64,000 nucleotides of DNA from Patescibacteria group bacterium (GTDB lineage: Bacteria > Patescibacteriota > Kazan-3B-28). This document shows positions 28,849-48,311 of this stretch, one piece after another. How positions within the stretch are numbered: the stretch's first letter is position 1; each line of letters begins with the position of its first letter. The translations under genes were made by a program, and so were the position numbers. A model generated the notes under the pieces. It made no database searches. It was not told the origin of the DNA and was given only the letters and a program-made list of their open reading frames with translations. The stretch covers positions 293,996-357,995 of the forward strand of contig JAQUNP010000001.1 of the NCBI GenBank assembly GCA_028717565.1. The letters run 5' to 3'.

Positions 28849-28850
28849 GA

Positions 28851-30089: not shown

Positions 30090-31892
30090 TTAACCCCCCG
30101 ACAGATTATTTAGCTCGGCTAATTGAGCAGGGTCAGAGGTTACGATTCTGTCTTCAACAAATGATGCGACTACTTTGATAGCGGCATGGTTGGTTCCGGC
30201 AAAAAAGAGGCCTTCACCGACGGCGGACTCAAGTAGCAGGAATTTCTCTCCGTCGGTTAGGTTGAAAGTGTCGGCTATGATATCAATAGAAGCTGGGGAT
30301 TGCCGGAAGAGCAACTGAAGAGATGAGTTGGCCACTACGGCTTTGCCGTATTTGGAGCCCAGGAAATCTTCCACGTCTTGAGTGATAGTAGTTAGACCTA
30401 AGAAATACTTACGAGCTCGTTTGGCGATACTGTAGAGGAATTTAGCCGAGTCCTCATGTTGCATCAAAATCCAAGCCTCGTCGATGACCAGTAAGCGCTT
30501 TCTTTGCTCAAAGCGAATTTTGTTCCAAATGTAGTTCAATACCACGTACATGCCGATGGGTCTTAAGGACTCTTCTAGGTCACGGATATTGAAGACCAAC
30601 AGTCCACGATCTAATTCAAAGTTTGTGGGCTGGTTGAAAACTCCAGAGAAGGTCCCACGCGTATATTTACTTAAACGCTGTGACAAGCTCTCTGCTCCCG
30701 ACATATTATCCAGGACGTTTTGTAGATCTTCCATTGTCGGTGGTTGGTTTTTGTGAGTTTTTAGGTCATCAGTAATATCTTTGACTGCGTAGGTTTCACG
30801 AATAGCTTTGTCCATTAGGGCATCTTCTTCGGGGTTGAGTTTGCCTAACATCAAATTCATCAATCCGAGAATCGTAATGACGGCTGCGCGTAGAACCTTT
30901 TCTCCGCTGGCATCTTCGCCAAGATCGGGCAGATCAAATGGGTTGATACGTTTCTCACTGTTTAGAGAAATAGAAACGTAGCTGCCACCGACTGCATCGG
31001 TTAAGGATTTATATTCGTCTTCTGGGTCGATGACGATAACGTCAGTCCCCAGCATCATAGACCTTAAGATCTCTAATTTTACTGCGTAGGATTTACCACC
31101 TCCAGATTTAGCGAAGACGGCCATGTTGGCGTTTTCTAGTTCGAATCTGTCAAAGAGGATGAGGGAATTGTTATGGCGGTTGACGCCGTAAAGGACACCT
31201 CGCCCGGTAGTTAGATCTACCGAAGTAAATGGGAAGGTGGTGGCTAAAGATGAGGTGGTCATATTTCTGACGACATTGATTTCATCTAGGCCCAAAGGCA
31301 GAGACGAATTGAAGCCCTCGGCCATCTGGAGCAAAGCGGGTTTGGTGTAGATAAGCTGCCCACCCAAAACTTTTTCAACGTGGCCACTCATACTATCGAG
31401 CTCTTCTAAACTTTTGGCGTAAACGGTGATGTAGAGACCCAAATGGAAGAATCTTTCTAGCCCTCGCTGTAGCCGGTCACGTAACTCCTCGGCGTCTTGG
31501 TAGGCAATCTCAAGTTCAGGGTCACGAATAGCGCCCTTCTCTTGTTGGATTCTTAGGGAAGATTCCATCTCCGCGACCTTACGACGGAGTACCCGCATAA
31601 TATTTTCGTTGTCGACTGGGTACATATGCATGGATATATCCAGATTGATATCGTAGTTAATAATAGGGCTAAGCCAGTTGGTCTCGACGTACTGCGGATA
31701 GGTTAGTACAAAAAAGCTGCGTGCCAGATGGTCGTTGAGCTGGATGTGGTCATTTTGAATTTGCATCGCGGCTGGGGCGATGAGGTCGCGGACTGAAACC
31801 AGACCGGCTTCAAACTTCTCTAGGGCGGCTTTGGCCTCCCGCTCTTCCTTGCTAGCTGTTTTTCGTTTAAATGGCCACATATTATTGTTCAC
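30090..31892 (-). CDS. virB4: Type IV secretion VirB4/TrsE-like ATPase
   Basis: 600 aa. Walker A KSGGGKS (nt about 31089-31106), Walker B LLVIDEAW and GLTTITQDVEDF motifs. N-terminal VirB4-type domain. Confidence 0.85.
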   Translation of the reverse strand: MNNNMWPFKRKTASKEEREAKAALEKFEAGLVSVRDLIAPAAMQIQNDHIQLNDHLARSFFVLTYPQYVETNWLSPIINYDINLDISMHMYPVDNENIMRVLRRKVAEMESSLRIQQEKGAIRDPELEIAYQDAEELRDRLQRGLERFFHLGLYITVYAKSLEELDSMSGHVEKVLGGQLIYTKPALLQMAEGFNSSLPLGLDEINVVRNMTTSSLATTFPFTSVDLTTGRGVLYGVNRHNNSLILFDRFELENANMAVFAKSGGGKSYAVKLEILRSMMLGTDVIVIDPEDEYKSLTDAVGGSYVSISLNSEKRINPFDLPDLGEDASGEKVLRAAVITILGLMNLMLGKLNPEEDALMDKAIRETYAVKDITDDLKTHKNQPPTMEDLQNVLDNMSGAESLSQRLSKYTRGTFSGVFNQPTNFELDRGLLVFNIRDLEESLRPIGMYVVLNYIWNKIRFEQRKRLLVIDEAWILMQHEDSAKFLYSIAKRARKYFLGLTTITQDVEDFLGSKYGKAVVANSSLQLLFRQSPASIDIIADTFNLTDGEKFLLLESAVGEGLFFAGTNHAAIKVVASFVEDRIVTSDPAQLAELNNLSGG

Positions 31893-32559
31893 TATTTTTT
31901 ATACTTTCAATAGCAGCAATATCGACGTTGCTGACAGAGAACAGTTTTTGTCGGCGAGAGGTATCGATATTGTAGGAAGAATACAGAAGTTCGATCACTT
32001 CTTGAGTGTTGAGCTGAATATTACTCAAACCCAAAGATGTCAAGCCCGAAGAAGTAAGCTGGGTTTGCTCGATGATTTTGGTTTTAGCATCTTCAAACTT
32101 TTTGCCAGTCGGAATATTACCCTGGCTGCCACCGAACAGGCTAGACCAAAAACCTTTGGCGATAGGTGTGAGTGAGTAGGGGATAACTACGTAAAAGGTC
32201 TTGCTCATGATGTTGGCCACACCAATCAGCTCACGGACGAACTCGATGTAGTCCTGAGTTTGGTTGCGAAGCAGGGCATTGGATTGACTGGCAACCTTGG
32301 TGTTGAGATCGCTCAAGTATTTATCTAAATCTAGAGTGCGCGACTGTACAACTATCTGTACAGGGAAGCTTAAGCTATTAATAAAGTTTTGATAATTAGC
32401 CAGCAAGGCGTCTTGCTCATCACGTGATTTGAGGTTGAAGTTAATGGCATTGACCATCAAGACGGTGCGCATACTGCCATCTTTTAAAACAATTACACCA
32501 TCTCGAATTTCTTCGACTGGTAGGAATTTTTGTGTGGATGTGGGTTTCTTTTTAACCAT
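31882..32559 (-). CDS. T4SS-associated soluble protein resembling the VirB4 N-terminal domain (no NTPase motifs)
   Basis: 225 aa. FLPVEEIRDGVIVLKDGSMRTVLMVNAINFNLKS..EQDALLANYQNFINSL.FPVQIVVQSR follows the pattern of Gram-positive VirB4 N-termini. 11-nt overlap with virB4. Confidence 0.5.
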   Translation of the reverse strand: MVKKKPTSTQKFLPVEEIRDGVIVLKDGSMRTVLMVNAINFNLKSRDEQDALLANYQNFINSLSFPVQIVVQSRTLDLDKYLSDLNTKVASQSNALLRNQTQDYIEFVRELIGVANIMSKTFYVVIPYSLTPIAKGFWSSLFGGSQGNIPTGKKFEDAKTKIIEQTQLTSSGLTSLGLSNIQLNTQEVIELLYSSYNIDTSRRQKLFSVSNVDIAAIESIKNSEQ

Positions 32560-32562
32560 GGT

Positions 32563-33108
32563 TTATTCAACATCTTCTAATACATCTTCAACCCCCAAGC
32601 TTTGTTCGGGTTCGATGACAGGAGCGTCAATGTGAGCGACTTGCGTGGTGATTGCATCAGCATCGTTCTCATTCATTTTACCACCCGTATCTAAGATGTT
32701 GGCGAGCTTCTCTATTTGAGTTTTGAATTCGCCTGGGCTTCTGCGTTCGGCAATTTCTTCTTTGGTGGTCTTGATGTCTTCACCGCGGACACGGATGGCT
32801 TTAACATGACGACGGGGTTCTTTGCTCCAAGTACGAATACGAGGGGCCATAACGAATTTGAATAAACTAAGCAGAAATACACCAAAGGGACGGCCATTAA
32901 TTTTTAAGAAGGCCATGGCCAGCACAAAGAAACCAACTACCACAGTAATGGCCAAAAACTCGATAAAGTAGAGATATGCCCGAGTGTAGTATTGGTAGGC
33001 GATGAAGATCACGGCTCCGCCACCCAGAAGGTAGAGGAACTGCTTCAAAGTTAGTGGACCGACTAACTTGTCTTCAATCGTAACGTTTTGTGGGATTTTA
33101 GCAGACAT
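32563..33108 (-). CDS. PrgI-family (VirB3-like) small membrane protein
   Basis: 181 aa. EDKLVGPLTLKQFLYLLGG, then two TM helices, then GRPFGVFLLSLFKFVMAPRIRTW, as in PrgI-type proteins. Charged C-terminal tail. Confidence 0.6.
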   Translation of the reverse strand: MSAKIPQNVTIEDKLVGPLTLKQFLYLLGGGAVIFIAYQYYTRAYLYFIEFLAITVVVGFFVLAMAFLKINGRPFGVFLLSLFKFVMAPRIRTWSKEPRRHVKAIRVRGEDIKTTKEEIAERRSPGEFKTQIEKLANILDTGGKMNENDADAITTQVAHIDAPVIEPEQSLGVEDVLEDVE

Positions 33109-33110
33109 AC

Positions 33111-35921
33111 TTAATACTCCTCCTCTTCCTCTTCTTCACTAGCGTTTTTATTTTTGGTGGTATTTTTAGGGCTACTATCTTGATTGCGGATAGCATCTAA
33201 CATTCGATGTACTTCTGACATCAGCCGATCGGTTGAGACGTCGCCAAGCTCTGCGGCATCCGTGATAATCTTGCCTTTATTAGAAATTGGGATATCTAAC
33301 TTCTGTTGGATTTCAAAGAAGCGTTTTTGGATTTCGGCTGCGTCTTCCAATGCGCTAGCAGGTACGTCGGACGGCTTCACAGAGGGGTTGTCGGCCAAAG
33401 GTTTGTTGTAAGCGGTGGCGATGTCCTGGATGAGCTTGGTAAGCTCTGGGGCAAGTGTGGTTGTGTCAACACCTCGAGCGACTGCGTTCTTGATGGCCAA
33501 CGAATAGGCGGGAGTTCTGTGATTGGCTCGGGCAAACTTTTGTCGGAGCCGCTCCACTCTTATACGGGGGGTAATGGTGGCCCTGGATTTATCTATGAAT
33601 TCGGTAATCTTAGGGTTCTTTTGAGCAGCCCTGGCTATGGTTTTGCCATCTTTTAGTTTGTCCACGTCTAGGTCGGTTTTGACTAGAAGCTCGGAAATGT
33701 CTTTGACAGTAGCTTCATCCCCAGATCCGAAGACGCCGGTGATAGTTAGCAGATAATCGGACAGTTCCTTTTGCTTCTCGGCGGCTGGTTTATTAGAGCG
33801 CCGAATACTTTTTAGAGTACTTTTTTGTCTGTCGTTGAGTAGGGACTCTAGAGCATCTAGTGCTACAGAATCAGTACTAGCGAGTTGGTCGCGTACCGTA
33901 TCCTCGGTGACTTGTTTGTAGTGGTCTAGATCCTCAGCGGAGGCCTGTGTAGCAAGGCGGAGTGCCGCGTGAATGGTTGGGTCACTGTTGGCGAGCACGT
34001 CTAGCTCACGTTGGAGTGCGCTGGCTTCGGTAGTGGCTTCTTTGAGAGCTTGTTGGTTGATGGCTAGTTCGCTGTAATCTTTTTCGGTCACCTTGCTGGC
34101 TTGGCGCTCTTCGTATCGTTCCAAATCCTTTTCAGAGATGGCCGGTGGTTCTTTGGGCCACCATTTGTTGGTAGCGTCGCGTTTGATGGTTTCGGTAATG
34201 CTGGGGTCGGCCATCAGCTTGATCATGGCAGCTTTGAATGGCACAGATTGGGGGCCGGTTTTATCAGCTTCTTGAGCCAAACGGGTCGACATGCCAGCCA
34301 GTTTTGTGCGGGTCTCAATACTGGTATCGCCATTGTTGATTTGTTGGACCAGCTCTTCGATTTGTTGAGCAAGGGCTTCTGGGCTGTAGCCAATGTCTTG
34401 TTGCAACTTACGTGCCTCAACCAAGATGCTAGTGTGCATCTTGTCATAAGTGGCATACTTCTTAGCCAGATCGGGTCGTTCCTTCTCGAACATAGCTTCA
34501 GCTTTGAACTTCTCTTCTGGCTTGAGTCCCTCTCGCTCCATAATTTGATCAATGGCAACTTTACGTTTATCTGCGAGGTCCTGGTAGATATTCATAATTG
34601 CTTCATTGCCCTGGCTTTGTACGGCTAATTTGCGTCTTTCGGTTTCAGTGTCGCGAATTCGTTTTTGGTTTTCAAAGAAAGACTGAACTCCACGAACCAT
34701 TTTGGCGACGGGGGCACCCATTTTGGTGCCGCCCACGGTCTCAAGCCCACGAGCTGTCCAAGTGCCCGCAGCGGTCTTGGTATATTTACCAAGGGCTTTA
34801 CCTCCAGCGGTGCTGACATTACCCAACCAGTTGGCACCACCAGCGGTGATGGCAGCCAGAGAAACGCCGACCATTTTATCGGCCGATCCGGCTGCTAGAA
34901 GCAGAGCAATAACAATAATGAAAATAATGAGGTTAGACCAAAAGTCGCCAGACATTTGGGCGCTGTCATCAACCACCTTCATCAACTCGCCAGCTACATT
35001 AACATCGCTGGTGAAGTAAGTGTAGTAAAACTTCATGGCTCCCGAGATAAGGGCTAGGGCGATTGGTAGAACCAAAATCCACTTAATCATTTCGCTCCAC
35101 CACTGGGAGGCCAGTCCTTGGAGTTCTTTGGCTGGGAAGAGGGACAGGGCAAAATAAATAGGGGCAGCGATGGTTGTATAAATCAGACGGACAGCTCGTT
35201 CTACTAAAATGAAGCCAAGTTTAAATAAAACAATCGCTAAAATAACTTGGACAACGATGACCATGACTGGCTGAAGAATACTGATTCTCCAGTCCACGGC
35301 AGGGTTGAGAGCTCCGTTAAAGCTTTGCATAAAGGTGCCACCAAAGAAACCCACTACGTCGTCGAGGCTGTAACCAAAAATGCTACGGGCGGTGCTAGCT
35401 AGTGTGTCACCAAGGTCAAAGATAAGAATCTGAGCGATCGGGTAGCTGATGTTGGCAACAATTGCGGCAGTGACTAGGCCGGTGATGGCTTTTTTGAGGT
35501 TGTATCCGCTATAGCGGGCGATAATTAAGATGGAGGCAATGAGAAGAGCCAGGAAAAATAAGACGTTGGCGACGCCAAGGACGATATTCCACATGTCATA
35601 GACAATGGTGACTTCGCCTCCAGTTCTAGCAAAGAGAGTTTCAAGGGCAGGGCCGATGGCAGAATCAATAACGAATACCAGAAGTTTGTTTAACCAAGCT
35701 AGGATATAGCCGAGGACGGCTGCTAAAATATTTAAGGCGGCCAAAAAAGGTGCAATGGTGCTTTTGGCGAGAGCATTACCGATAGCCGCTCCGACTGATG
35801 TCTGGGCTAGAGTAGCGGTGGGGAGACCGATCAAAAGACCTGTAGCCAACACCAAAAAAGGCGACTTCACCTTTTGGATTAGTCGATTTTTTGACAATCT
35901 GTCTGCAATTTTTCTAAGCAT
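33111..35921 (-). CDS. VirB6/TrbL-like polytopic membrane protein with long helical C-terminal domain and poly-Glu tail
   Basis: 936 aa. Signal-like N-terminus, about 8 TM helices in aa 1-380, then about 550 aa of hydrophilic helical sequence ending NASEEEEEEEY. First gene of the operon. Confidence 0.55.
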   Translation of the reverse strand: MLRKIADRLSKNRLIQKVKSPFLVLATGLLIGLPTATLAQTSVGAAIGNALAKSTIAPFLAALNILAAVLGYILAWLNKLLVFVIDSAIGPALETLFARTGGEVTIVYDMWNIVLGVANVLFFLALLIASILIIARYSGYNLKKAITGLVTAAIVANISYPIAQILIFDLGDTLASTARSIFGYSLDDVVGFFGGTFMQSFNGALNPAVDWRISILQPVMVIVVQVILAIVLFKLGFILVERAVRLIYTTIAAPIYFALSLFPAKELQGLASQWWSEMIKWILVLPIALALISGAMKFYYTYFTSDVNVAGELMKVVDDSAQMSGDFWSNLIIFIIVIALLLAAGSADKMVGVSLAAITAGGANWLGNVSTAGGKALGKYTKTAAGTWTARGLETVGGTKMGAPVAKMVRGVQSFFENQKRIRDTETERRKLAVQSQGNEAIMNIYQDLADKRKVAIDQIMEREGLKPEEKFKAEAMFEKERPDLAKKYATYDKMHTSILVEARKLQQDIGYSPEALAQQIEELVQQINNGDTSIETRTKLAGMSTRLAQEADKTGPQSVPFKAAMIKLMADPSITETIKRDATNKWWPKEPPAISEKDLERYEERQASKVTEKDYSELAINQQALKEATTEASALQRELDVLANSDPTIHAALRLATQASAEDLDHYKQVTEDTVRDQLASTDSVALDALESLLNDRQKSTLKSIRRSNKPAAEKQKELSDYLLTITGVFGSGDEATVKDISELLVKTDLDVDKLKDGKTIARAAQKNPKITEFIDKSRATITPRIRVERLRQKFARANHRTPAYSLAIKNAVARGVDTTTLAPELTKLIQDIATAYNKPLADNPSVKPSDVPASALEDAAEIQKRFFEIQQKLDIPISNKGKIITDAAELGDVSTDRLMSEVHRMLDAIRNQDSSPKNTTKNKNASEEEEEEEY

Positions 35922-39861: not shown

Positions 39862-39951
39862 GGAGAGGTGTCCGAGCGGCTTAAGGAACTGGTCTTGAAA
39901 ACCAGCAAGGCGGCAACGTCTTCGTGGGTTCGAATCCCACCCTCTCCGCCA
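39862..39951 (+). tRNA. tRNA-Ser (anticodon UGA), CCA encoded
   Basis: Acceptor GGAGAGG/CCTCTCC, anticodon stem CTGGT/ACCAG with loop CTTGAAA, long variable arm, T-arm GTGGGTTCGAATCCCAC. Confidence 0.95.
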
Positions 39952-40074
39952 CGGGTCAGAATTCAACTGGTTTGAATCTGGATCCGTGGCGAGGGTATGG
40001 ATACGACGCATCCGAAGGACAAAGGTTCGTATACGATGCTGCCAAAATATAGATAAAATCCTTTCCAACATCCG

Positions 40075-40096
40075 CCCCAAAGGGGTCCCGTTGGGA
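40075..40096. repeat. 22-nt imperfect palindromic element, copy 1
   Basis: CCCCAAAGGGGTCCCGTTGGGA. It matches 54113-54134 at 19 of 22 positions. The differences fall in the loop, at the mismatched central pair and at the last base. Confidence 0.8.
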
Positions 40097-40133
40097 CGAG
40101 TGGAGGGGCCCACCGGAGGTGGGAAACCTACCT

Positions 40134-40148
40134 CACCCTCTCCGCCAC
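40134..40148 (+). repeat. Duplicated 3' end of tRNA-Ser (att-like direct repeat)
   Basis: CACCCTCTCCGCCAC is identical to 39938-39952 (T-stem 3' side, acceptor 3' strand, discriminator, CCA and one more base). The copies are 196 nt apart. Confidence 0.85.
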
Positions 40149-40176
40149 TATATAATAGAGGTATTAATAAGTTTTT

Positions 40177-40662
40177 ATGGCAGACAAACAAGATAGAGGG
40201 AAAGAACTTTTTTCATGGCAAGCTGGCGAGTTTCGGGCTGCTACACGGGGGGTGTGGTGGCATGTTACGGTTTGGGCCTTGGCAATATTGGCGGTCGTGT
40301 ATTCTGTTTATATACAAAGCTGGTTTTTTATTGGAGTGGTGGTGATGATAGTGGTGGCACTCTATGTTCTTGGGCGAGCAGAGCCGCGGGTGTTCACGCA
40401 CAGTATTACTGATAGCGGGATTTTGGTGGGCGAGAGATTTTATAGTTATGATTCGTTGAAGTCATTTTGGATAGTAAATGACAAGATAGCTGGGGTAACT
40501 TTAAATGTTATGACTGCCAAGCGATTTGATTTACTGTTAACTTTACAAATCCAAGAGAGTGATGTAGAAAAGGTGAGACAGATCCTGTCGAAGTTTCTGC
40601 CAGAGGATGCAGGCAGGGGTGAGGATACGATAGATAAAATCGGTCGGTTTCTTAAATTTTGA
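40177..40662 (+). CDS. Hypothetical membrane protein (2 TM helices plus small C-terminal domain)
   Basis: 161 aa. TATAAT at 40151-40156. No recognisable motif. Confidence 0.6.
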   Translation: MADKQDRGKELFSWQAGEFRAATRGVWWHVTVWALAILAVVYSVYIQSWFFIGVVVMIVVALYVLGRAEPRVFTHSITDSGILVGERFYSYDSLKSFWIVNDKIAGVTLNVMTAKRFDLLLTLQIQESDVEKVRQILSKFLPEDAGRGEDTIDKIGRFLKF

Positions 40663-40671
40663 AAGTCATAT

Positions 40672-40748
40672 GCGCCTGTAGCTCAGCGGATTAGAGCGTC
40701 TAGCTACGGACTAGAAGGTCAGGGGTTCGAGTCCCTTCAGGCGCGCCA
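40672..40748 (+). tRNA. tRNA-Arg (anticodon ACG), CCA encoded
   Basis: Acceptor GCGCCTG/CAGGCGC, anticodon stem TCTAG/CTAGA with loop CTACGGA, T-loop TTCGAGT. Confidence 0.93.
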
Positions 40749-40749
40749 C

Positions 40750-40841
40750 GGAGAGGTGCCAGAGTGGCCGAATGGGACGGTTTGCTAAACCGTTATACGG
40801 GGTTTCTCGTATCGAGGGTTCGAATCCCTCCCTCTCCGCCA
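40750..40841 (+). tRNA. tRNA-Ser (anticodon GCU), CCA encoded
   Basis: Acceptor GGAGAGG/CCTCTCC, anticodon stem ACGGT/ACCGT with loop TTGCTAA, long variable arm. Starts 1 nt after tRNA-Arg. Confidence 0.93.
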
Positions 40842-40848
40842 GTAGATT

Positions 40849-41007
40849 ATGAACAAAGTGCGATATAGACAAGGGTTGTGCCTAAGCCTGTTACTGGTAG
40901 TTTTCGGTATTATCATTTTTGTTGCGCTAGAGCACATCAAAGCGGTGGGATGTGTGTTGGTTGTGGTGGGTCTTGGGTTGATGGCTAAATTCATTCGGGT
41001 TTTATGA
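40849..41007 (+). CDS. Small hydrophobic protein, 52 aa, 2 predicted TM helices (not in the supplied ORF track)
   Basis: Hand translation gives MNKVRYRQGLCLSLLLVVFGIIIFVALEHIKAVGCVLVVVGLGLMAKFIRVL*. Its TGA overlaps the tadA ATG (ATGA). Confidence 0.4.
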   Translation: MNKVRYRQGLCLSLLLVVFGIIIFVALEHIKAVGCVLVVVGLGLMAKFIRVL

Positions 41008-41459
41008 AGGGAGATCAAAAGTACCGAGATGAGATTCTAAGATTGGCCCGTAAGGCCTATTCTGCAAATGAAGTTCCCGTGGGAGCGATTGTGGTAGATG
41101 GTGATGGTACGATTATTGGCCGAGGGTTCAACCAAACCCATACCAAGAAAGATGGCTTAAGACACGCAGAGCTGGTGGCCATCAGGATGGCGCAGCGGAA
41201 GGTGGGTGACTGGCGCTTGGAAAAGGCGTCAATATATATTACGTTAGAGCCGTGTCTGATGTGTTTAGGCGCTATTGGTAACGCTCGTATCAAAAACCTT
41301 TATTATATTTTGTCGGATCCCTTATTCGGTTCGGTGGCGAGTAAGTTAACTAAAGCAAAAGTCCGTCAGTTGTTTCCAGGATTAAATATTGAGAAACTGT
41401 CGGGTGGGACAGAGGTAGGGCAGTTGATGCGGGAATTTTTTAAAAAATTACGAAAGTAG
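41004..41459 (+). CDS. tadA: tRNA-specific adenosine(34) deaminase
   Basis: 151 aa. CDA zinc motifs HAELVAI and PCLMCLGAI. Confidence 0.9.
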   Translation: MKGDQKYRDEILRLARKAYSANEVPVGAIVVDGDGTIIGRGFNQTHTKKDGLRHAELVAIRMAQRKVGDWRLEKASIYITLEPCLMCLGAIGNARIKNLYYILSDPLFGSVASKLTKAKVRQLFPGLNIEKLSGGTEVGQLMREFFKKLRK

Positions 41460-41470
41460 ATAAACCAAAA

Positions 41471-41562
41471 GGAGAGGTGCCAGAGTGGTTGAACGGGGCG
41501 CTCTCGAAAAGCGTTATATCCTGTTTGGGATATCGTGGGTTCGAATCCCACCCTCTCCGCCA
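41471..41562 (+). tRNA. tRNA-Ser (anticodon CGA), CCA encoded
   Basis: Acceptor GGAGAGG/CCTCTCC, anticodon stem GCGCT/AGCGT with loop CTCGAAA, long variable arm, T-arm GTGGGTTCGAATCCCAC. Confidence 0.93.
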
Positions 41563-41582: not shown

Positions 41583-42476
41583 ATGAGTTGTTCTGTAATA
41601 GTGCCCACTTATAACCGCTTGGGGTATTTAAAAAAGTGTCTAGCTTCCTTGCGGAATTTAGATCACCAAGATTTTGAACTGGTGGTTGTAGATGATGCTT
41701 CCACCGATGGGACGCGCGAGTTTTTAGAAAGTTGGCAAGACGACCGGGTGCGGGTGATTCGTCAGCCAATGAATCAGGGCGTGGCACGGGCTAGAAATGT
41801 TGGAATCAAAGTGGCATCCGGGGAAGTGTTAGCTTTCATTGATGACGACTGTGTAGCAGAGCCGGCTTGGCTTGGGAGTCTGTTGCAAGGATTTACCAAT
41901 GAGGAGATTGGTTTTGTGATAGGCCAAACCTTTTACGCGCGACCTGGATACAAGGGGTATTTCCCAGAACGTTTGGTATCCAATGTAGGGGCGAGATGGC
42001 CAATGACATCTAACATCGCTTTTCGGAGGCAGGTTTTTAATAAGTGTGGCGGTTTTGATGATTTTTTCTTGCAGTACAATAATGAAGATTCTGAAATGGC
42101 AATTCGGGCCGTGACACAAGGGTTTGATTTTGTACGTGAGAAGGCGGCGGTAGTGTATCACCAGCCAGCCGACTGGACAGTGGCTTCACTTTGGCGGTCG
42201 GCAAGAAACGCCTCGGTTTGGCCAGTGCTAAAAAAGTATTACCCGGAAACGTATATGGTTTTTGGCCCACCAGTTAGTGGAGGGTGGCTGGTGAACGGAA
42301 TGGATTATTTCTATATTTTAACCGCCCCCATTTTGATACCGGCGCTGCTATTGCGGTACCTGTGGCACGGCAAACGAGATCTGAAAATATTTTTTGCTAA
42401 GTGGCCAATCTATATTTTTTTGAGACGATTCTATATTTATAAAGAGGCCATAAAAAATCGAGTTTGGATGCTTTAA
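41583..42476 (+). CDS. Glycosyltransferase family 2
   Basis: Start moved to M17 (MSCSVIVPTYNR...) because the track ORF begins inside the tRNA. DDASTDGT and FIDDD (DxD) motifs. Confidence 0.85.
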   Translation: MSCSVIVPTYNRLGYLKKCLASLRNLDHQDFELVVVDDASTDGTREFLESWQDDRVRVIRQPMNQGVARARNVGIKVASGEVLAFIDDDCVAEPAWLGSLLQGFTNEEIGFVIGQTFYARPGYKGYFPERLVSNVGARWPMTSNIAFRRQVFNKCGGFDDFFLQYNNEDSEMAIRAVTQGFDFVREKAAVVYHQPADWTVASLWRSARNASVWPVLKKYYPETYMVFGPPVSGGWLVNGMDYFYILTAPILIPALLLRYLWHGKRDLKIFFAKWPIYIFLRRFYIYKEAIKNRVWML

Positions 42477-42479
42477 CAG

Positions 42480-42509
42480 CAAGAGCCCTTCATGTTTGAA
42501 GGGCTCTTG
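42480..42509. terminator. Hairpin between convergent GT2 and pilin genes
   Basis: CAAGAGCCCTTC-atgttt-GAAGGGCTCTTG, a perfect 12-bp stem with weak T-runs. Confidence 0.6.
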
Positions 42510-42537
42510 TTAATGTCTAGCTGATTTGGCTAACTAA

Positions 42538-42888
42538 CTACGTGCGGAAAAGGTCGACCACGGATGTGGCGATGACGTAGGCCAGCAGAATGACCACCAT
42601 ACCGATAATGGCATTGATGATGATCTGTTTTGCTGTTTCAGCACCCTTGGCGCCACCTGTGATGTAAGTGATACCGCCATAGACCAAGTAGCCCACAGCA
42701 ATAGCACCAGCGATGCCAGCGATAATCTGGATGGCGTTGTCGATGATGCCAGTTAAGCTATCGATACCACCCGATTGCAGCGCGTCCCCAAGACCGATAT
42801 CGCCCGACGATTGAGCCATAGCAGGCAGGGGCAACAAAAGAATACTGCCAGCTAACCATGCGGATAAATTTACAAATAATTTCTTCAT
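42538..42888 (-). CDS. VirB2/TrbC-like T4SS pilin
   Basis: 116 aa. Signal peptide (..LPAMA), then two hydrophobic helices flanking YGGITYITGGAKGAETAKQIIINAIIGMVVILLAY, the pattern of Gram-positive/CPR T4SS pilins. Confidence 0.7.
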   Translation of the reverse strand: MKKLFVNLSAWLAGSILLLPLPAMAQSSGDIGLGDALQSGGIDSLTGIIDNAIQIIAGIAGAIAVGYLVYGGITYITGGAKGAETAKQIIINAIIGMVVILLAYVIATSVVDLFRT

Positions 42889-42924
42889 TGTTATTTCCCC
42901 ACAAAATCAATTTATATCTGTTTC

Positions 42925-42954
42925 ATTTTATCACGATTGGGTTCGACCCCTCAA
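42925..42954 (-). promoter_or_regulatory. Candidate promoter of the distal pilin gene
   Basis: The minus strand reads TTGAGG (42954-42949), an 18-nt spacer ending in TGa, then TAAAAT (42930-42925). Confidence 0.4.
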
Positions 42955-42973
42955 TACCCGATAAGTGATGTTA

Positions 42974-43312
42974 TTAACCACTCGTGATGACTTCTTTAAA
43001 GGATTGGACAATGGCGTATGCCAACAAAACAATCACAGCTCCGACAATAGCGGAGAGGATAGTTTTTTTACCTCCATCGGTGTTGCCTTGCATATATTTG
43101 ATGCCACCCCAAACAATCATGCCGACAATGATGGCTCCAGCAAAATTGGCGAGCCAAACAATCAACTGCTCGGCGGCTACTCCGGCTTGTTGGACTAACT
43201 GATCAAGATTTTCGGTCGAGCTGGTCTCAGTATTTTGAGCCAAGCAAATTGGCGTGGCAAGAAACCAAGCAGTGGGGAGGCCAAGCAAAAAAGTTTTTAT
43301 AAGTTGGTTCAT
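42974..43312 (-). CDS. VirB2/TrbC-like T4SS pilin (paralog)
   Basis: 112 aa. Signal peptide (..PICLA). WGGIKYMQGNTDGGKKTILSAIVGAVIVLLAY. Its ATG overlaps the TGA of the upstream solute-binding protein gene (ATGA). Confidence 0.7.
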   Translation of the reverse strand: MNQLIKTFLLGLPTAWFLATPICLAQNTETSSTENLDQLVQQAGVAAEQLIVWLANFAGAIIVGMIVWGGIKYMQGNTDGGKKTILSAIVGAVIVLLAYAIVQSFKEVITSG

Positions 43313-44673
43313 TCCAAGTTGTTGATATCTCTAACTGCAGTTTCGACGGCTACACGTGAACTAATCTTGTTTTTCAACACATTGGCAATCATCTCGTCAA
43401 AGATAGTTTCCACTTCGGAGGTGTTATTGCGGTACCAAGTTCTCATGTAAGGGACTTGCTCAGCAATAGCACCGTAGTATCTTTTGCCCTTGGCGTTGGC
43501 GAGAGAACTAAGGCGAGCCGAGATGCGGCCGGTGAAGCGCGCATAACTGCTTTGACGGGTGCCTTTGAGCATAAAATTGATAAAGTCCCAGGCCTCATTG
43601 GGATGGGCGCTGGTTCTAGATACGGTCTCGCCCCAATAGTTTGAGATGGTAACGGGGTCTTGCAAAGTGTTTTGGGGGATGGGGGCGGTGGCAAAGCGTA
43701 AGTTGGGGCTAAACTTTTGAATGTTGGCAATCTGATATCCGTAGCCTAACATCATAGCTGCCTTGCCTTCCATAAATGCCTGGACATCTGATGGGAAAAT
43801 ACGATTGCCAGCTGCATTAGTGGCTCCAGTATAGGTGTAGAGAGCAGAAGACGGGTTGGCAAACTGGGTATAAAATTCTAGAGCTGCTTCTCCTGCCATC
43901 ACCGGAGGATTGGTATTTGCTACGGGCAAATCAAAAGTGGCTTGGTCGCCGTCGGCTGATGTCATCTCAGCGCCATATTGCATCATGAGTGCGGCCAAAA
44001 TGCCAGAAGCGCCGGGGATGCTTTCAGAGGTTTCGCCTAGGGCGATGGCTGATCGGATGATATTGCCAGAGGCGTCTTTTTTAGTCAGTTGGGGGACTAG
44101 GGAGATTAATTCTTTCAAAGTTGTGGGAGCCTGTCTGATATGATTTTCGGAAAAGATATCAGTGTTGTAGAACAAAATGAGGTTGTCTATGTAGTATGGT
44201 ACTGCATAGATGCGATTGTCGGATACAAAGTCGTCCACCACTACTTGGGGGAAGGTTTCTTCGTAGTCATGGATGCTCATAAGCCCAGCTGGCATGGGAG
44301 AAATATGATTAATATGGTACGGCAACCAGTTGCTATTGATCATAAACATATCCGGCCCTGCACCATCGGCAATTAGTTTGGTGATTCGGGACTGATAATC
44401 ATAGACCGTTTCACCTTTCTCAATCTCTATTTTTTTGACTTCGATAGTAATATTTGGGTGAGCTTTTACATAGTCGTTGACAAACCCACGCATGACATCG
44501 CTTTCATCCCACAGACGCCAGTATTCCAAAGTAATGGGGTCCTTGGTATTAAGATCCGGTGCATCTTCCTGAGTGCTAATTCCACCGGTAGTGAGGCTGC
44601 ACCGAGCTGACATCAGCACTAACCCGATGGTGACGAAAAAGCAGAGGTATTTGACAAATTGTGTCTTGTTCAT
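43309..44673 (-). CDS. ABC-transporter-type extracellular solute-binding lipoprotein (family 1, sugar-like), orphan
   Basis: 454 aa. Lipobox LMSARC. ITLEYWRLWDE... and GAGPDMFMINSNWLP patterns. No permease or ATPase gene adjacent. Confidence 0.8.
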   Translation of the reverse strand: MNKTQFVKYLCFFVTIGLVLMSARCSLTTGGISTQEDAPDLNTKDPITLEYWRLWDESDVMRGFVNDYVKAHPNITIEVKKIEIEKGETVYDYQSRITKLIADGAGPDMFMINSNWLPYHINHISPMPAGLMSIHDYEETFPQVVVDDFVSDNRIYAVPYYIDNLILFYNTDIFSENHIRQAPTTLKELISLVPQLTKKDASGNIIRSAIALGETSESIPGASGILAALMMQYGAEMTSADGDQATFDLPVANTNPPVMAGEAALEFYTQFANPSSALYTYTGATNAAGNRIFPSDVQAFMEGKAAMMLGYGYQIANIQKFSPNLRFATAPIPQNTLQDPVTISNYWGETVSRTSAHPNEAWDFINFMLKGTRQSSYARFTGRISARLSSLANAKGKRYYGAIAEQVPYMRTWYRNNTSEVETIFDEMIANVLKNKISSRVAVETAVRDINNLE

Positions 44674-45521
44674 TTGATAACCTTTTTTAGTTTAGGATCA
44701 TCCTTGGCGTATTCAATGATAGCTTGAAGATAGCTAACGGGGTCTCCAGTAGTTAGCCATTTGCCCCCGATAACTTTTTGTACAATGACGGGATAGTCCC
44801 GAGCCAATATTTTTATTGCATCGGCTATCCAATATTCGTTACCTTTGCCCTTTTGGGTTTTTTCTAAGGCGGTAAAAATATCTGGTGTAAAAAGATACCG
44901 ACCAAAGGCAGCGAGACGGGAAGGAGCATTTTTGCGCGAAGGCTTTTCTACGATAGCATCTACAAAACGTGTTTTACCCTTCAACCCTACTATGCCATAT
45001 TTTGACACCTCTTTGCTACTGACCTCCTGCACACCCAGTACACTGCAACCGTGTTTTTTATAAGTGTCGATTAGTTGTTTCGAGAAGGATGTCCGAGATT
45101 TTACCAAGTCGTCTCCAAAGGCATAGATAAAGGGCTCGTTGCCAAGTAATTCTCGGGCAGTAATCGCTGGCAGGGCGTTGCCATATCCTTCGATTTGACG
45201 GATGTAAACAAACTTGGCTAACTTAGAAATTTTTTTGACCTCTTCGACCAGGGCTTTTTTGCCTTGAGCAAGCAACTGATGTTCTAACTCAAAGGATGGA
45301 TCAAAGTGGTCTTCGATGGACTTCTTTTGCCAGTTGGTGACTAAGATAATCTCCTCAATGCCGGCAGCACTAAGCTCCTCGACAATATACTGGACAATCG
45401 GTTTGTCCAGGATAGGTAGCATTTCTTTGGGGGTGGTTTTGGTTACGGGCAAAAACCGAGTTCCGAATCCTGCTACGGCGATGACGGCTTTTCTAACTTT
45501 CATTGCTGATATCTCGTACAT
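44670..45521 (-). CDS. galU: UTP--glucose-1-phosphate uridylyltransferase
   Basis: 283 aa. AVIAVAGFGTRFLPVTKTTPKEMLPI motif. The start may be M7 (45503). Its TGA stop overlaps the ATG of the downstream SBP gene (ATGA). Confidence 0.9.
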   Translation of the reverse strand: MYEISAMKVRKAVIAVAGFGTRFLPVTKTTPKEMLPILDKPIVQYIVEELSAAGIEEIILVTNWQKKSIEDHFDPSFELEHQLLAQGKKALVEEVKKISKLAKFVYIRQIEGYGNALPAITARELLGNEPFIYAFGDDLVKSRTSFSKQLIDTYKKHGCSVLGVQEVSSKEVSKYGIVGLKGKTRFVDAIVEKPSRKNAPSRLAAFGRYLFTPDIFTALEKTQKGKGNEYWIADAIKILARDYPVIVQKVIGGKWLTTGDPVSYLQAIIEYAKDDPKLKKVIK

Positions 45522-45945
45522 TGATTACTTTGGTGTAGGCCTTGTTAGCTAGAGGTAGGATGACAGTCAGGATACCATCGTCAAGAGTGGCTCGGATTCT
45601 TTCGGGGTCGACCTCTTTTGGTAACTCGATAACGCGACTTAAAGGGCCCCAATGGCACTCCTGAAGATAGAAATATTCCTCTTCGTCGGACTCCTCGCGG
45701 AAACTATTTTTTGTGATGGTTAAGGTATTGTTTTCTATGGTAATGCTGATATCATCGGCATTGGCTCCAACGATAGGGGTGCGGACGATTATTTTATTAC
45801 CGGTGCGGACGAGGTCGATGGGGAGTTCTGCCCCAACCTTGTCTAAAACCTCGTCTGTGGTTTCACCGAAGGTAATACGATTGGCGTCTGCCTCCAAATT
45901 TTTGGCGAAAAAGATGTTTTTTAGCATACTATTTAGATTATACAT
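45493..45945 (-). CDS. Hsp20/alpha-crystallin small heat-shock protein
   Basis: Alpha-crystallin domain (..RVIELPKEVDPERIRATLDDGILTVILP). The start is uncertain (45987, 45945 or 45927); 45945 was chosen to leave room for divergent promoters. Confidence 0.8.
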   Translation of the reverse strand: MYNLNSMLKNIFFAKNLEADANRITFGETTDEVLDKVGAELPIDLVRTGNKIIVRTPIVGANADDISITIENNTLTITKNSFREESDEEEYFYLQECHWGPLSRVIELPKEVDPERIRATLDDGILTVILPLANKAYTKVINVRDISNES

Positions 45946-46010
45946 CCCGAGGGATTTTTTCTTTGTTATAATGTGCCTACTGTTCAATTCTTTAATGTAG
46001 GGGGACTGAT

Positions 46011-48311
46011 TTGAGAAAAATAAGCTTCATTTTGGGTATGGCTCTGGTGGCGACTATGTTGCCAACGCAAGTTTTGGCAAGCGCTTTTAGTGCGCAGCTT
46101 ATTTCAGTGTCTCCTACGACATCAGTGAAAGCCGGAACGACCACCCAGGTGCAGATACAAATCAAGAACACGGGGACAACCACGTGGGTCAACAGCGGAG
46201 CCAATGCGGTCAAACTTGGTACGATTGAGCCCCGGGATCGGGTTGGAAAGTTGTATCACGGAAGCTGGCTTAGTCCTAATCGAGCAGCCACGATGCAAGA
46301 AGTGACTGTGGCTGGCGGCGAGGTGGCAACATTTACTTTTGATGTTACGGCTGTTGGTGCCGGGCAAGTTACAGAAAAACTCGGTCTGGTAGCAGAGGGG
46401 GTTACATGGTTTGATGGTTTCTCGGTATCCATTACATTGCAGGTGCAACCAGCAGTTTGGAAGGCGGCCTTGGTGCAGCAATCTGCTTCCAACGTGTCGC
46501 TTAAATCTGGTGAGGTAGGGGAGCTATCAGTACAAATTAGAAATGATGGTGATGTGGCTTGGCAAAATATTGGGGCTTTTGCAGTGAAAGTGGGGACGGC
46601 GTCTCCGGTGGATAGAAAAAGTAGTTTTGTGTCGGCCTCTTGGCTTAGTCCAAATCGAGTCAGCTCGGCCGAGATGATTGTGGCTCCAGGTGAAACGGGA
46701 ACGTTTAAGCTAAATTTGCAAGCACCCATCAAAACCGGGACTTATGTGGAAAAATTTGCTTTGGTGGCCGAGGGGATTACATGGTTTGATGTCAATTTCT
46801 CTGTGACAATCAACGTGGTGCCAGCCATTTATAGCGCGGAGTATGTAGGTCAATCGGCTAGTTCTTTATCTTTGACTTCTGGGCAGACAGCGACGGTTTG
46901 GGTAGATTTTAAAAACTCCGGAAATACTATTTGGAGATCAAGTGGCGATACCATGGCGAAGCTGGGCACGGCTAGAAATTTAGATAGACAAAGTGTGTTT
47001 TATGATAGTAGTTGGTTAAGTCCAAACCGGGCTGCAACTTTTTTGCAGGCCGAAGTGAAGCCGGGTGAAGTGGCTAGATTTACGTTTGTGGTGAGGGCGC
47101 CTGATAGAGTGGGAGAAAACTTTAAAGAGTATTTCCGCCCGGTGATTGAAGGGGTAGCGTGGCTACCGGACTTGGGCGTTTATTTTGATATTTCTATAGA
47201 CGAAGAATTAGCATTGGTAGATCCAATTCGGGTAGGGCTGACCTCCACCACCGACAGCGTAACGGTGCAGGGCAGCAGTTTTGTGATTCGTCGGGGAACT
47301 GACAAGGGCTTGGTTGGTACGTATCAGAACCAGGCGGTAGCGATTGCGCCGTTGGGTTATGGTTATAGCATTAACGGTCAAAGTGTTTCTGACTGGGTGA
47401 GAGTGATCCCTCTTAACAACTCTGTTTTAACGGTTAATACCAGCGGGATCGGTAGCTATAACACTTTTCGTGGGATGATTTTGGTGCGACGCTCGCCGGT
47501 AACTAATAATATCTGGGTGGTCAATGAATTGAGTTTGGATGACTATACAAAAGGCATCGCCGAAGTCCCGAATAGTTTCCCATTAGAGGCCCAAAAGGCA
47601 CAAATGGTTGCGGCTAGGACGTTTGCTGTAAAAAAACGGAGTGAAAGTACGTCGTCGGACATCTTCGATGTGTATGACGATACCCGCCACCAAGTTTACT
47701 ATGGGTACAATTATGAAAAAGATAGACCTAGTTTAGTGGCCGCCTCCGAGAATACTAAGGGAATGGTTATAAAGTACCAAGGGCAGCCTATTAACGCCTA
47801 CTATTTTTCGGATAGCGGTGGATATACTTCAAATGTAGAGTGGGTTTGGGGCGGTAATCCAATTCCATATTTGAAAGGAGTGCCTGATCCTTGGGCTAAG
47901 TCAGATACTTGGACATATACCCTGCAACAGGATTATCTCAAGAGCCGCTTCGATGATACATTAGGCATCTCTGCGGTGGGCGGGGACACTATCGAGGACA
48001 TTCAAGTGGCAGAACGGTATCCCTCCAACTGGGCCAAAATGATTGTTTTTTCTTTGTCCAATGGTCGGGTGGTCTCGGTTCCAGTAAAAACTTTTGATTA
48101 CTTAACTAGTAATTCGGAACTTCGGAGTATGAATTTTGAAGTAAAGAAGATTAATGATTTTGGGCAAACTGCCTTTGTATTTACTGGCAGAGGCTGGGGC
48201 CACAATATCGGTATGCCACAGTGGGGAGCAAAAAATATGGCCGATGCAGGTAAAACCTATCAAGAGATTCTGACTTACTACTATACTGGTGTGACAGTGG
48301 GACCTGTTTAG
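46011..48311 (+). CDS. SpoIID/LytB-domain protein with three N-terminal Ig-like repeats
   Basis: 766 aa. TTG start 5 nt after AGGGGGA. Signal peptide. Three repeats of about 123 aa. C-terminal SpoIID region (AQKAQMVAARTFA, YYFSDSGGYTSN). Confidence 0.85.
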   Translation: MRKISFILGMALVATMLPTQVLASAFSAQLISVSPTTSVKAGTTTQVQIQIKNTGTTTWVNSGANAVKLGTIEPRDRVGKLYHGSWLSPNRAATMQEVTVAGGEVATFTFDVTAVGAGQVTEKLGLVAEGVTWFDGFSVSITLQVQPAVWKAALVQQSASNVSLKSGEVGELSVQIRNDGDVAWQNIGAFAVKVGTASPVDRKSSFVSASWLSPNRVSSAEMIVAPGETGTFKLNLQAPIKTGTYVEKFALVAEGITWFDVNFSVTINVVPAIYSAEYVGQSASSLSLTSGQTATVWVDFKNSGNTIWRSSGDTMAKLGTARNLDRQSVFYDSSWLSPNRAATFLQAEVKPGEVARFTFVVRAPDRVGENFKEYFRPVIEGVAWLPDLGVYFDISIDEELALVDPIRVGLTSTTDSVTVQGSSFVIRRGTDKGLVGTYQNQAVAIAPLGYGYSINGQSVSDWVRVIPLNNSVLTVNTSGIGSYNTFRGMILVRRSPVTNNIWVVNELSLDDYTKGIAEVPNSFPLEAQKAQMVAARTFAVKKRSESTSSDIFDVYDDTRHQVYYGYNYEKDRPSLVAASENTKGMVIKYQGQPINAYYFSDSGGYTSNVEWVWGGNPIPYLKGVPDPWAKSDTWTYTLQQDYLKSRFDDTLGISAVGGDTIEDIQVAERYPSNWAKMIVFSLSNGRVVSVPVKTFDYLTSNSELRSMNFEVKKINDFGQTAFVFTGRGWGHNIGMPQWGAKNMADAGKTYQEILTYYYTGVTVGPV
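46080..47210 (+). repeat. Three tandem intragenic domain repeats of about 370 nt each
   Basis: Recurrent pattern Q.S....L.SG......V...N.G...W......KLGT..P.DR.S.F...SWLSPNR......V.PGE...F.F...AP......E.F..V.EG..WF. Boundaries are approximate. Confidence 0.7.

Follow-up and report, generated by a model that had tools for sequence, protein, structure and literature searches.

The locus

The DNA considered here is a 64-kb stretch (64,000 nucleotides) of contig JAQUNP010000001.1 from assembly GCA_028717565.1, referred to below as the window, and all positions are counted from its first letter. The DNA is chromosomal and comes from a Kazan-related Patescibacterium, the top protein matches being Kazan proteins and other Patescibacteria proteins from metagenome-assembled genomes. 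The window contains dnaA, dnaN and recF at 10.8-14.6 kb, and FemAB, a Mur ligase, an H+-pyrophosphatase and aminoacyl-tRNA synthetases are likewise encoded in it. The subject of this text is a single tight minus-strand array of five open reading frames (ORFs), in which hsp20 and galU precede a gene for a MalE-like solute-binding protein (SBP) and two genes for VirB2-like pilins of a type IV secretion system (T4SS), here called pilA (proximal) and pilB (distal). The SBP gene directly precedes pilin genes in a wide range of Patescibacteria, and we propose that its product belongs to a surface module working together with the T4SS. The initial annotation had described the array as joined by overlaps, and its ORFs, its coordinates and both ATGA junctions are found in the sequence as claimed. 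The features of the array are the following:

45493..45987, minus strand: hsp20, encoding a small heat-shock protein (PF00011 HSP20, 53 bits; ORF counted from the TTG at 45987)
44670..45521, minus strand: galU-like gene for a UTP-glucose-1-phosphate uridylyltransferase (PF00483, 110 bits)
43309..44673, minus strand: gene for the MalE-like SBP (CUT1-type, SBP_bac_1/8) of 454 aa (PF13416, 95.8 bits; PF01547, 88.3 bits; MDD5606048.1)
42974..43312, minus strand: pilA, encoding the proximal VirB2-like pilin of 112 aa (PF18895, 31.9 bits; MDD5606047.1)
42925..42954, minus strand: promoter-like site, TTGAGG-18 nt-TG-n-TAAAAT, in the pilA-pilB spacer (consensus match only)
42538..42888, minus strand: pilB, encoding the distal VirB2/TrbC-like pilin of 116 aa (PF18895, 43.2 bits; PF04956, 33.7 bits; MDD5606046.1)
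42481..42508, minus strand: 12-bp GC-rich hairpin 3' of pilB (fold of 42540-42465: -28.3 kcal/mol, z = -6.3)

The SBP gene and pilA are joined by an ATGA overlap that reads GGAATGAACC, and this stop/start overlap predicts that pilA is translationally coupled to the SBP gene. The galU/SBP junction is an ATGA overlap as well and reads CAAATGAACAAG, while the overlap of galU with hsp20 measures 29 nt, or 11 nt if the likelier second ATG at 45503 is taken as the start. In contrast to these overlaps, pilA and pilB are separated by a spacer of 85 nt, in which a GGGGA Shine-Dalgarno-like run lies 8 nt 5' of the pilB ATG. An extended -10 promoter of its own had been proposed for the distal pilin. A site with the TG extension is indeed present in the spacer, but it is indistinguishable from chance, as the region holds 9 promoter-like sites compared to 7.1 +/- 2.9 in shuffled sequences, i.e., no excess.

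The two pilins

Both small ORFs are predicted by profile and topology to be genuine VirB2/TrbC-type pilins. In searches against the T4SS pilin families, both exceed the Pfam cut-off for PF18895 (T4SS_pilin, 26.6 bits), pilB with 43.2 bits and pilA with 31.9 bits. For PF04956 (TrbC, cut-off 27.9 bits), pilB reaches 33.7 bits and pilA 27.1 bits, which is 0.8 bits under the cut-off. The name that NCBI gives to both proteins is already TrbC/VirB2 family protein. A sub-threshold match of pilB to NF045849, a pilin-like family of mycoplasma integrative and conjugative elements (ICEs), was also found. Signal peptides and two hydrophobic helices around a shared core, which had been described for both ORFs, are present. 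Each protein starts with a hydrophobic N-terminal leader ending in CLA-Q or AMA-Q, an Ala-X-Ala-like site followed by Gln, and the hydrophobic stretches span approximately residues 49-74 and 81-109 in pilA and 48-76 and 85-115 in pilB. The two helices are joined by a short Lys-containing loop (holding GGKK and AETAK, respectively), and the core motif reads VWGGIKYMQGNTDGGKKTILSAIVGAVIVLLAYAI in pilA and VYGGITYITGGAKGAETAKQIIINAIIGMVVILLAY in pilB. The mature pilins are minimal, with 87-91 aa and no cargo domain, and share 40% identity over 52 residues.

An AlphaFold2 (AF2) model of pilB, made from a two-sequence alignment, has long helices at residues 42-77 and 79-115, with a pLDDT of only 60.5. 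No PDB match at E < 0.001 was obtained with Foldseek for this low-confidence model, and a sequence search of the PDB gave nothing meaningful. A pilin hidden Markov model (HMM), built from 16 PF18895 proteins, detected no pilin ORF in the 64-kb window beyond pilA and pilB. A phage origin of the module was considered and rejected, since neither pilin matches PHROG and the match of the SBP is marginal only.

Orthologs of pilA hold the same position in the loci of the Kazan group. In most Kazan relatives (L010-L016), the proximal pilin, of 77-92 aa, has no signal peptide, unlike pilA. Each of the two pilin positions appears to have its own conserved subtype. In general, pilin sequences diverge faster than the SBP (see also PMC12102498).

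Conservation of the SBP-pilin junction

To follow the junction in other genomes, one genome per species (GTDB representatives) was scanned with an alignment of 21 SBPs, so that loci were selected by SBP similarity alone. More than 523 SBP relatives were confirmed, and the counts given here cover the best 80 loci. All of these belong to Patescibacteria, i.e., Kazan, Doudna-, Yanofsky-, Azam-, Portnoy-, Moranii-, Jorgensen- and Brennerbacteria and Paceibacterota. In 70 of the 75 loci that have at least 600 bp of downstream sequence, the next same-strand ORF matches the pilin HMM. The gap between both genes has a median of approximately 7 nt and is at most 30 nt in 56 of these 70 loci; nine related junctions consist of the same ATGA overlap. 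Usually 2-9 pilin-domain genes follow the SBP gene. Across the loci, 266 pilin matches were found in 342 kb of downstream sequence, against 0 in 380 kb upstream. Pfam independently detects PF18895 in 68 of 76 first downstream ORFs. Moreover, when seven orthologs were looked up by exact protein, PF18895 genes were directly downstream in six, including SBPs of 31-41% identity that have other upstream genes (SMC, GyrA, hsp20).

The upstream gene varies, which means that the SBP-pilin junction has survived rearrangement on its other side. Adjacency, coupling and conservation are direct observations on these loci, and the linkage they describe is very probably functional. The five exceptions comprise two small insertions, two loci with less than 1 kb of downstream sequence and one locus (L076) with no pilin within 6 kb. 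Genes of a selfish-element type were seen inserted exactly at the SBP-pilin junction, a GIY-YIG nuclease gene in one case (L025:7190-7444) and a gene for a protein of the 23S rRNA intervening-sequence/bAvd-like type in the other (L080:7252-7626).

A natural fusion of an SBP with PF18895 (P0117, 568 aa; L003:1951-3657) was considered as proof of interaction and discarded, as none of 119 close relatives is fused. Compared to L089:8001-9718, it lacks, through an in-frame deletion, the stop codon of the SBP gene and the initial half of the signal peptide of the pilin, and the sequence stems from a single 3.9-kb Logan contig. Either a true variant or a mistake in assembly, P0117 gives weak support at most, although an SBP outside the cell with the pilin hairpin behind it would fit its topology.

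The solute-binding protein

The AF2 model of the SBP (pLDDT 90.8) has the two-lobed fold of oligosaccharide-binding SBPs. Residues 20-34 are disordered in it, as would be expected of a tether that follows an N-terminal anchor. The protein is predicted to be composed of an N-terminal membrane anchor, a flexible tether of roughly 20 residues and the two-lobed domain. The initial annotation had called it a lipoprotein. The Cys is kept among close relatives, but the lipobox in the window is atypical (LMSAR-C, in which Arg occupies -1 and Ser occupies -3, against the consensus [LVI][ASTVI][GAS]C) and distant family members miss the Cys, so that the call is uncertain. Close orthologs have better boxes, LSAAS-C or LGAAA-C, whereas distant ones have an N-terminal transmembrane helix and no Cys.

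Both a PDB profile search and Foldseek place the SBP among the CUT1 oligosaccharide-binding proteins, with binders of manno-oligosaccharides, cycloalternan, sophoro-oligosaccharides and maltodextrin. The top Foldseek matches are 4r9f, 5f7v and 5ysd, with target-normalised TM scores of 0.72-0.84, and the nearest structural relatives bind manno-, gluco- and malto-oligosaccharides. Within the family, 27 residues, many of them aromatic, are invariant across 31-68% identity. From these structural relatives and the conserved aromatic residues, an oligosaccharide-type ligand is predicted.

As in the initial annotation, the SBP has no permease or ATPase partner beside it. No ATP-binding cassette (ABC) permease or ATPase is encoded in the 64-kb window, and neither a CUT1 permease pair nor an ABC ATPase occurs within 6 kb of any of the 80 SBPs. 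ABC-like genes near these SBPs occur in two loci only: L079 has an ABC-2-like pair at a distance of 3.7 kb upstream, and L061 has an SMC-like ORF. K02027, the KEGG orthology group of such SBPs, is among the few 'transporters' that are kept across Patescibacteria; it is reported in nearly all of them, with no permease groups cited (PMC7137472, PMC12361377). The number of ABC-transporter proteins in a Patescibacteria genome is reported as only 3 +/- 3 (PMC7137472).

Another orphan SBP, which belongs to the oligopeptide family (SBP_bac_5, K02035), lies beside secG in two distant Patescibacteria, i.e., SEML1_0634/0635 of Southlakia (PMC10633639, supplement) and PMX_810_sub_00080-00082 (PMC10936435, supplement). 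Southlakia cannot do without it, whereas in PMX_810 its gene adjoins galU, and it may be another case of SBP use outside transport.

The T4SS core cluster

A cognate T4SS for the pilins (VirB4-, TrsD- and PrgI-like proteins and an 8-TM protein, i.e., one with eight transmembrane segments) is encoded in the window:

30090..35921, minus strand: T4SS core cluster, presumably the cognate one of the pilins (profile matches; gene order)
33111-35921, minus strand: 936-aa 8-TM protein at the cluster edge (eight hydrophobic segments; no ATPase match)
32563-33108, minus strand: PrgI/VirB3-like protein
31882-32559, minus strand: TrsD-like protein
30090-31892, minus strand: VirB4-like ATPase (match to the NCBIfam CD1110 family with 400.9 bits, cut-off 325)

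The order of these core genes agrees with that of SEML1_0011-0008 in Southlakia. The pilins had been described as detached from this cluster, which holds, but the distance to VirB4 had been given as about 7 kb. The gene 7 kb away is the one for the 936-aa protein at the cluster edge, and virB4 itself lies approximately 11 kb away. tRNA, tadA and glycosyltransferase genes occupy the region between cluster and pilin array. Such detachment is not unusual, since pilins were found near virB4 in only 1135 of 1948 assemblies in a published survey (PMC12102498). None of the 80 related arrays has a VirB4, PrgI or VirB6-like gene within 6 kb.

A few further observations concern this region. VirB4 function is split: the 225-aa TrsD-like protein matches the N-terminal part of a mycoplasma ICE VirB4, and its gene shares 11 nt with the beginning of that for the 600-aa ATPase; at the equivalent position, Southlakia has a 293-aa gene. 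Directly downstream of virB4 and on the same strand (27208-30089) are genes for a PilB-type ATPase (T2SSE, 376.6 bits) and a surface protein with TSP3/DUF11 repeats. Type IV pilus and T4SS genes are thus contiguous here, approximately 20 kb from dnaA. In the stretch that separates the T4SS cluster from the pilin module, tadA and a gene for a DUF5673 membrane protein are interspersed with genes for tRNA-Ser (three) and tRNA-Arg (one), at 39862-41562.

Flanking genes

In the window, hsp20 probably starts at the ATG at 45945 rather than at the TTG; its orthologs have 139-148 aa. The galU product scores 290.9 bits with TIGR01099, under the cut-off of 326.8. Upstream of the array lies a divergent neighbour:

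46011..48311, plus strand: secreted protein with a SpoIID domain and Ig-like repeats (PF08486, 68.3 bits; PF16158)

At the other end of the array, the hairpin lies between the convergent pilB and glycosyltransferase genes and is likely to mark the end of the transcript, although a terminator scan passed over it because of its weak T-run. The GTG start of this downstream family 2 glycosyltransferase gene, at 41535, overlaps a tRNA-Ser gene (41471-41562), and its true start is probably further downstream. An Rfam search of 42300-46300 gave no known RNA element at E <= 0.1.

The gene before the SBP gene differs among the related loci. In 42 of 77 loci it encodes a class I S-adenosylmethionine-dependent methyltransferase of approximately 180 aa, usually placed after gyrA (e.g., L021:4837-5376 and L027:5205-5750), and in 20 of 77 it is GalU-like; elsewhere the gene for GyrA, hsp20 or the one for SMC directly precedes it. 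In 26 related loci (e.g., L019, L027, L040, L063 and L079), hsp20 flanks the SBP-pilin array. At least three arrangements occur, and the classes that have them are distant from one another. Loci of the Kazan group have hsp20 upstream and co-directional, whereas in the GyrA-methyltransferase-SBP type of locus it is convergent and directly follows the last pilin gene. The latter is also the arrangement in Southlakia, where hsp20 (SEML1_0020) is convergent after the pilin genes, and where this hsp20 and the pilins are essential (PMC10633639). A gene for a PrsW-family intramembrane protease (PF13367) was seen beside hsp20 in loci of the L027/L063 type.

Glycan-cleaving enzymes are encoded near the pilins too. 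The gene for the SpoIID protein, a peptidoglycan lytic transglycosylase, is conserved next to hsp20 in 11 related loci, which suggests that this protein may be part of the module. Moreover, the first pilin-domain protein after the SBP is often large (200-1000 aa), with C-terminal SLT, He_PIG and fn3 domains. In 11 of 76 cases it carries an SLT lytic transglycosylase domain together with Ig-like domains (L027:7203-8279, L030:7287-9074, L064:7234-9513 and eight others). Such pilin-Ig-SLT fusions may be cell-wall hydrolases of the VirB1 type, which are missing from most Patescibacteria T4SS loci in the published survey (PMC12102498). Given the SLT fusions in relatives and the SpoIID neighbour in the window, glycan-cleaving enzymes, a glycan-type SBP and pilins recur together, and this recurrence possibly reflects a shared function.

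Comparison with known systems

Arrays of 2-11 genes for VirB2-like pilins have been described for Patescibacteria (Quinonero-Coronel et al. 2025, PMC12102498), and in Southlakia epibionticum, the one species tested, the pilin array and the T4SS are essential (Wang 2023, PMC10633639). The Southlakia array (SEML1_0014-0019) resembles the one in the window in its tandem divergent PF18895/TrbC genes, its chromosomal monoderm-type T4SS without relaxase, its position near dnaA and its adjoining hsp20. Compared to it and to the arrays of the survey, the array in the window has two genes only, and its distance is 7 kb to the cluster edge and 11 kb to virB4. In addition, a MalE-like SBP gene leads the pilin genes here and is translationally coupled to them, while the Southlakia array has no SBP.

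The SBP itself shares the SBP_bac_1/8 family and the two-lobe fold with the receptors of CUT1 importers of the MalEFGK2 type, i.e., CpMnBP1 (4r9f), Lmo0181 (5f7v) and a sophoro-oligosaccharide-binding protein (5ysd), and its predicted N-terminal membrane tether is as in Gram-positive SBPs. Unlike in these importers, no genes for MalF/MalG-like permeases or a MalK-like ATPase adjoin it in the window or in the 80 orthologous loci; pilin genes follow the SBP gene instead.

Three known systems connect SBPs with T4SSs or with pilus-like machines. PrgZ/TraC of enterococcal conjugative plasmids are pheromone-binding orphan SBPs that are encoded together with a Gram-positive (MPF-FATA) T4SS. PrgZ differs in belonging to the oligopeptide family SBP_bac_5, in feeding the chromosomal Opp permease and in being regulatory; its gene is not known to adjoin a pilin gene, and PrgZ systems are not known to have pilins. 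In the archaeal bindosome (the Bas system of Sulfolobus), sugar-binding proteins are tied to small pilin-like proteins and to a pilus-type surface assembly machine. These are pilins of type IV pili with a class III signal peptide, not of the VirB2 type, and the SBPs still feed ABC permeases. In Agrobacterium, the sugar-binding ChvE is functionally linked to a T4SS through VirA, but it has its own ABC operon, acts via this histidine kinase on vir transcription and has no known link to pilin genes. We know of no precedent for a hybrid of binding-protein-dependent uptake and type IV secretion. The T4SS of Patescibacteria is related to the MPF-FATA class (PMC12102498).

A literature search, with most subscription journals outside its reach, returned no description of SBP-pilin linkage. 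The text of PMC12102498 contains 0 occurrences of solute, substrate-binding or ABC, and the other papers on pilin arrays are likewise silent on the SBP. While the single genes have already been annotated, the phylum-wide architecture of pilin arrays with the SBP gene first appears to be new.

Interpretation

We propose that the chromosomal monoderm-type T4SS of this Kazan-related Patescibacterium uses both pilins, and that the SBP gene and the pilin genes would form an ancient, phylum-wide module that is expressed as one transcript. Through the stop/start overlap, the membrane-tethered MalE-like SBP would be made stoichiometrically with the first pilin. pilA might then be an adaptor or minor subunit. 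pilB would be the major subunit, and is probably the more abundant one because its gene comes with a ribosome-binding site, and possibly a promoter, of its own. The SBP would act extracellularly with the pilins and the T4SS, not as the receptor of an adjacent ABC importer. It may bind a conserved glycan, for instance one derived from the host or from the cell wall, and either dock the pilus/T4SS to this ligand or hand the ligand to the machine. Its role might be that of a receptor, of substrate capture or of a chaperone. The initial annotation had suggested a pilus-associated receptor or adhesin in place of a transporter component, and both checks that could have refuted it came out in its favour: the small ORFs match pilin profiles, and the linkage to pilins recurs in other genomes, where, as in the window, no permease or ATPase operon partner adjoins the SBP. 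We give the reading that a conserved SBP-pilin surface module works with the T4SS a probability of roughly one in two, with physical association, ligand and direction of transport being what we infer. The stricter version, in which the SBP is the ligand-binding subunit of a VirB2-like pilus and its T4SS and is no part of an ABC importer at all, is rather doubtful.

Several points weigh against this interpretation. The case for contact between SBP and pilins is indirect, and the fusion P0117 is a singleton, a deletion product and possibly an assembly error. The essential pilin arrays of Saccharimonadia, Southlakia among them, lack this SBP, from which it follows that the SBP is not required for pilin function generally, and a few SBP orthologs have no adjoining pilin (L005, L076). 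The strong conservation of the SBP would fit a fixed ligand and argues against a strain-specific host adhesin. Finally, the search for ABC genes covered 64 kb of a 359-kb contig, so that a distal ABC permease may serve the SBP, and surveys read K02027 as sugar uptake (PMC7137472, PMC12361377).

These last points lead to the main competing explanation, which holds that the SBP is the receptor of an ordinary importer of sugars or oligosaccharides, with permease and ATPase encoded elsewhere in the manner of PrgZ/TraC, and that its adjacency to the pilin genes reflects shared regulation of surface genes only. Orphan SBPs that share distal permeases are well known, and in both sequence and fold the protein is an entirely typical CUT1 SBP. 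Genes for such SBPs usually sit in operons, however, and not one of the 80 species loci keeps a permease or an ATPase beside the SBP. The treatment of K02027 as a retained sugar-uptake gene in surveys speaks for such an importer, and the small number of ABC-transporter proteins per Patescibacteria genome (PMC7137472) against it. Moreover, the stop/start overlaps with the first pilin gene, seen in ten independent loci, and the 7-nt median gap suggest more than loose co-regulation. Altogether, we consider a distal importer unlikely. It is improbable that the SBP-fold protein is instead an extracytoplasmic chaperone or assembly factor, which would hold or deliver pilin segments or pilin-SLT fusions in a monoderm envelope that has no periplasm. 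Its coupling specifically to the first pilin-domain protein, the constancy of its sequence while the pilins vary and the linkage of a cytoplasmic holdase, hsp20, to the locus would all fit such a role, and some SBPs have chaperone-like activity in vitro. On the other hand, the aromatic-rich conserved residues and the intact two-lobe fold resemble a site for a small ligand, Saccharimonadia assemble their essential arrays without the SBP and, to our knowledge, an SBP-type chaperone for VirB2-type pilins has no precedent.

The pilin-domain proteins themselves can be read differently. The PF18895 proteins could be two-helix membrane anchors or oligomeric platforms for enzymes with SLT and Ig domains, forming no pilus, while the SBP collects the glycan fragments that are released; such a salvage station need not involve VirB4. 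Large proteins combining the pilin domain with SLT, He_PIG and fn3 directly follow the SBP in many loci, the 80 arrays have no VirB4, PrgI or VirB6-like genes within the 6 kb searched, and no pilus of such proteins has been imaged, the literature speaking only of a 'potential to elaborate' one (PMC12857230). The pilins in the window are minimal and carry no cargo, though, their TrbC/VirB2 profile matches are significant, and the Southlakia array lies inside a T4SS cluster and is essential together with it, which makes a platform without a pilus quite improbable. Inherited synteny without functional meaning is hardly credible. The Kazan group does keep the whole region, with the genes for SpoIID, hsp20, galU, SBP, pilins, the DUF5673 protein and two large surface proteins. 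However, the junction persists in combination with at least five upstream contexts and in loci whose SBPs are as low as 31% in identity, its codons overlap or nearly abut, and insertions into it are rare (L025, L080).

Significance

Patescibacteria, which account for much of the diversity of bacteria, live in attachment to other microbes and take what they need from these hosts. The role of their T4SS has been called 'completely unknown' (PMC11665869), while uptake from the host is under discussion (PMC12857230). When Patescibacteria were cultured with a methanogen, T4SS pilin genes ranked among the most strongly expressed of those that have no known function (PMC10936435). An importer-type SBP that is coupled with pilins in many lineages provides a concrete handle on the idea of host uptake. 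The protein is predicted to be soluble apart from its anchor and to have a confidently modelled fold, which would make it suited to expression, to ligand screening and to use as bait for pilin and T4SS partners. Should the SBP work with the T4SS, the 'sugar transporter' that is annotated in nearly all Patescibacteria genomes would have to be read differently. In the stricter and rather doubtful version given above, the essential T4SS of Patescibacteria would be an SBP-assisted device that recognises or imports host-derived glycans.

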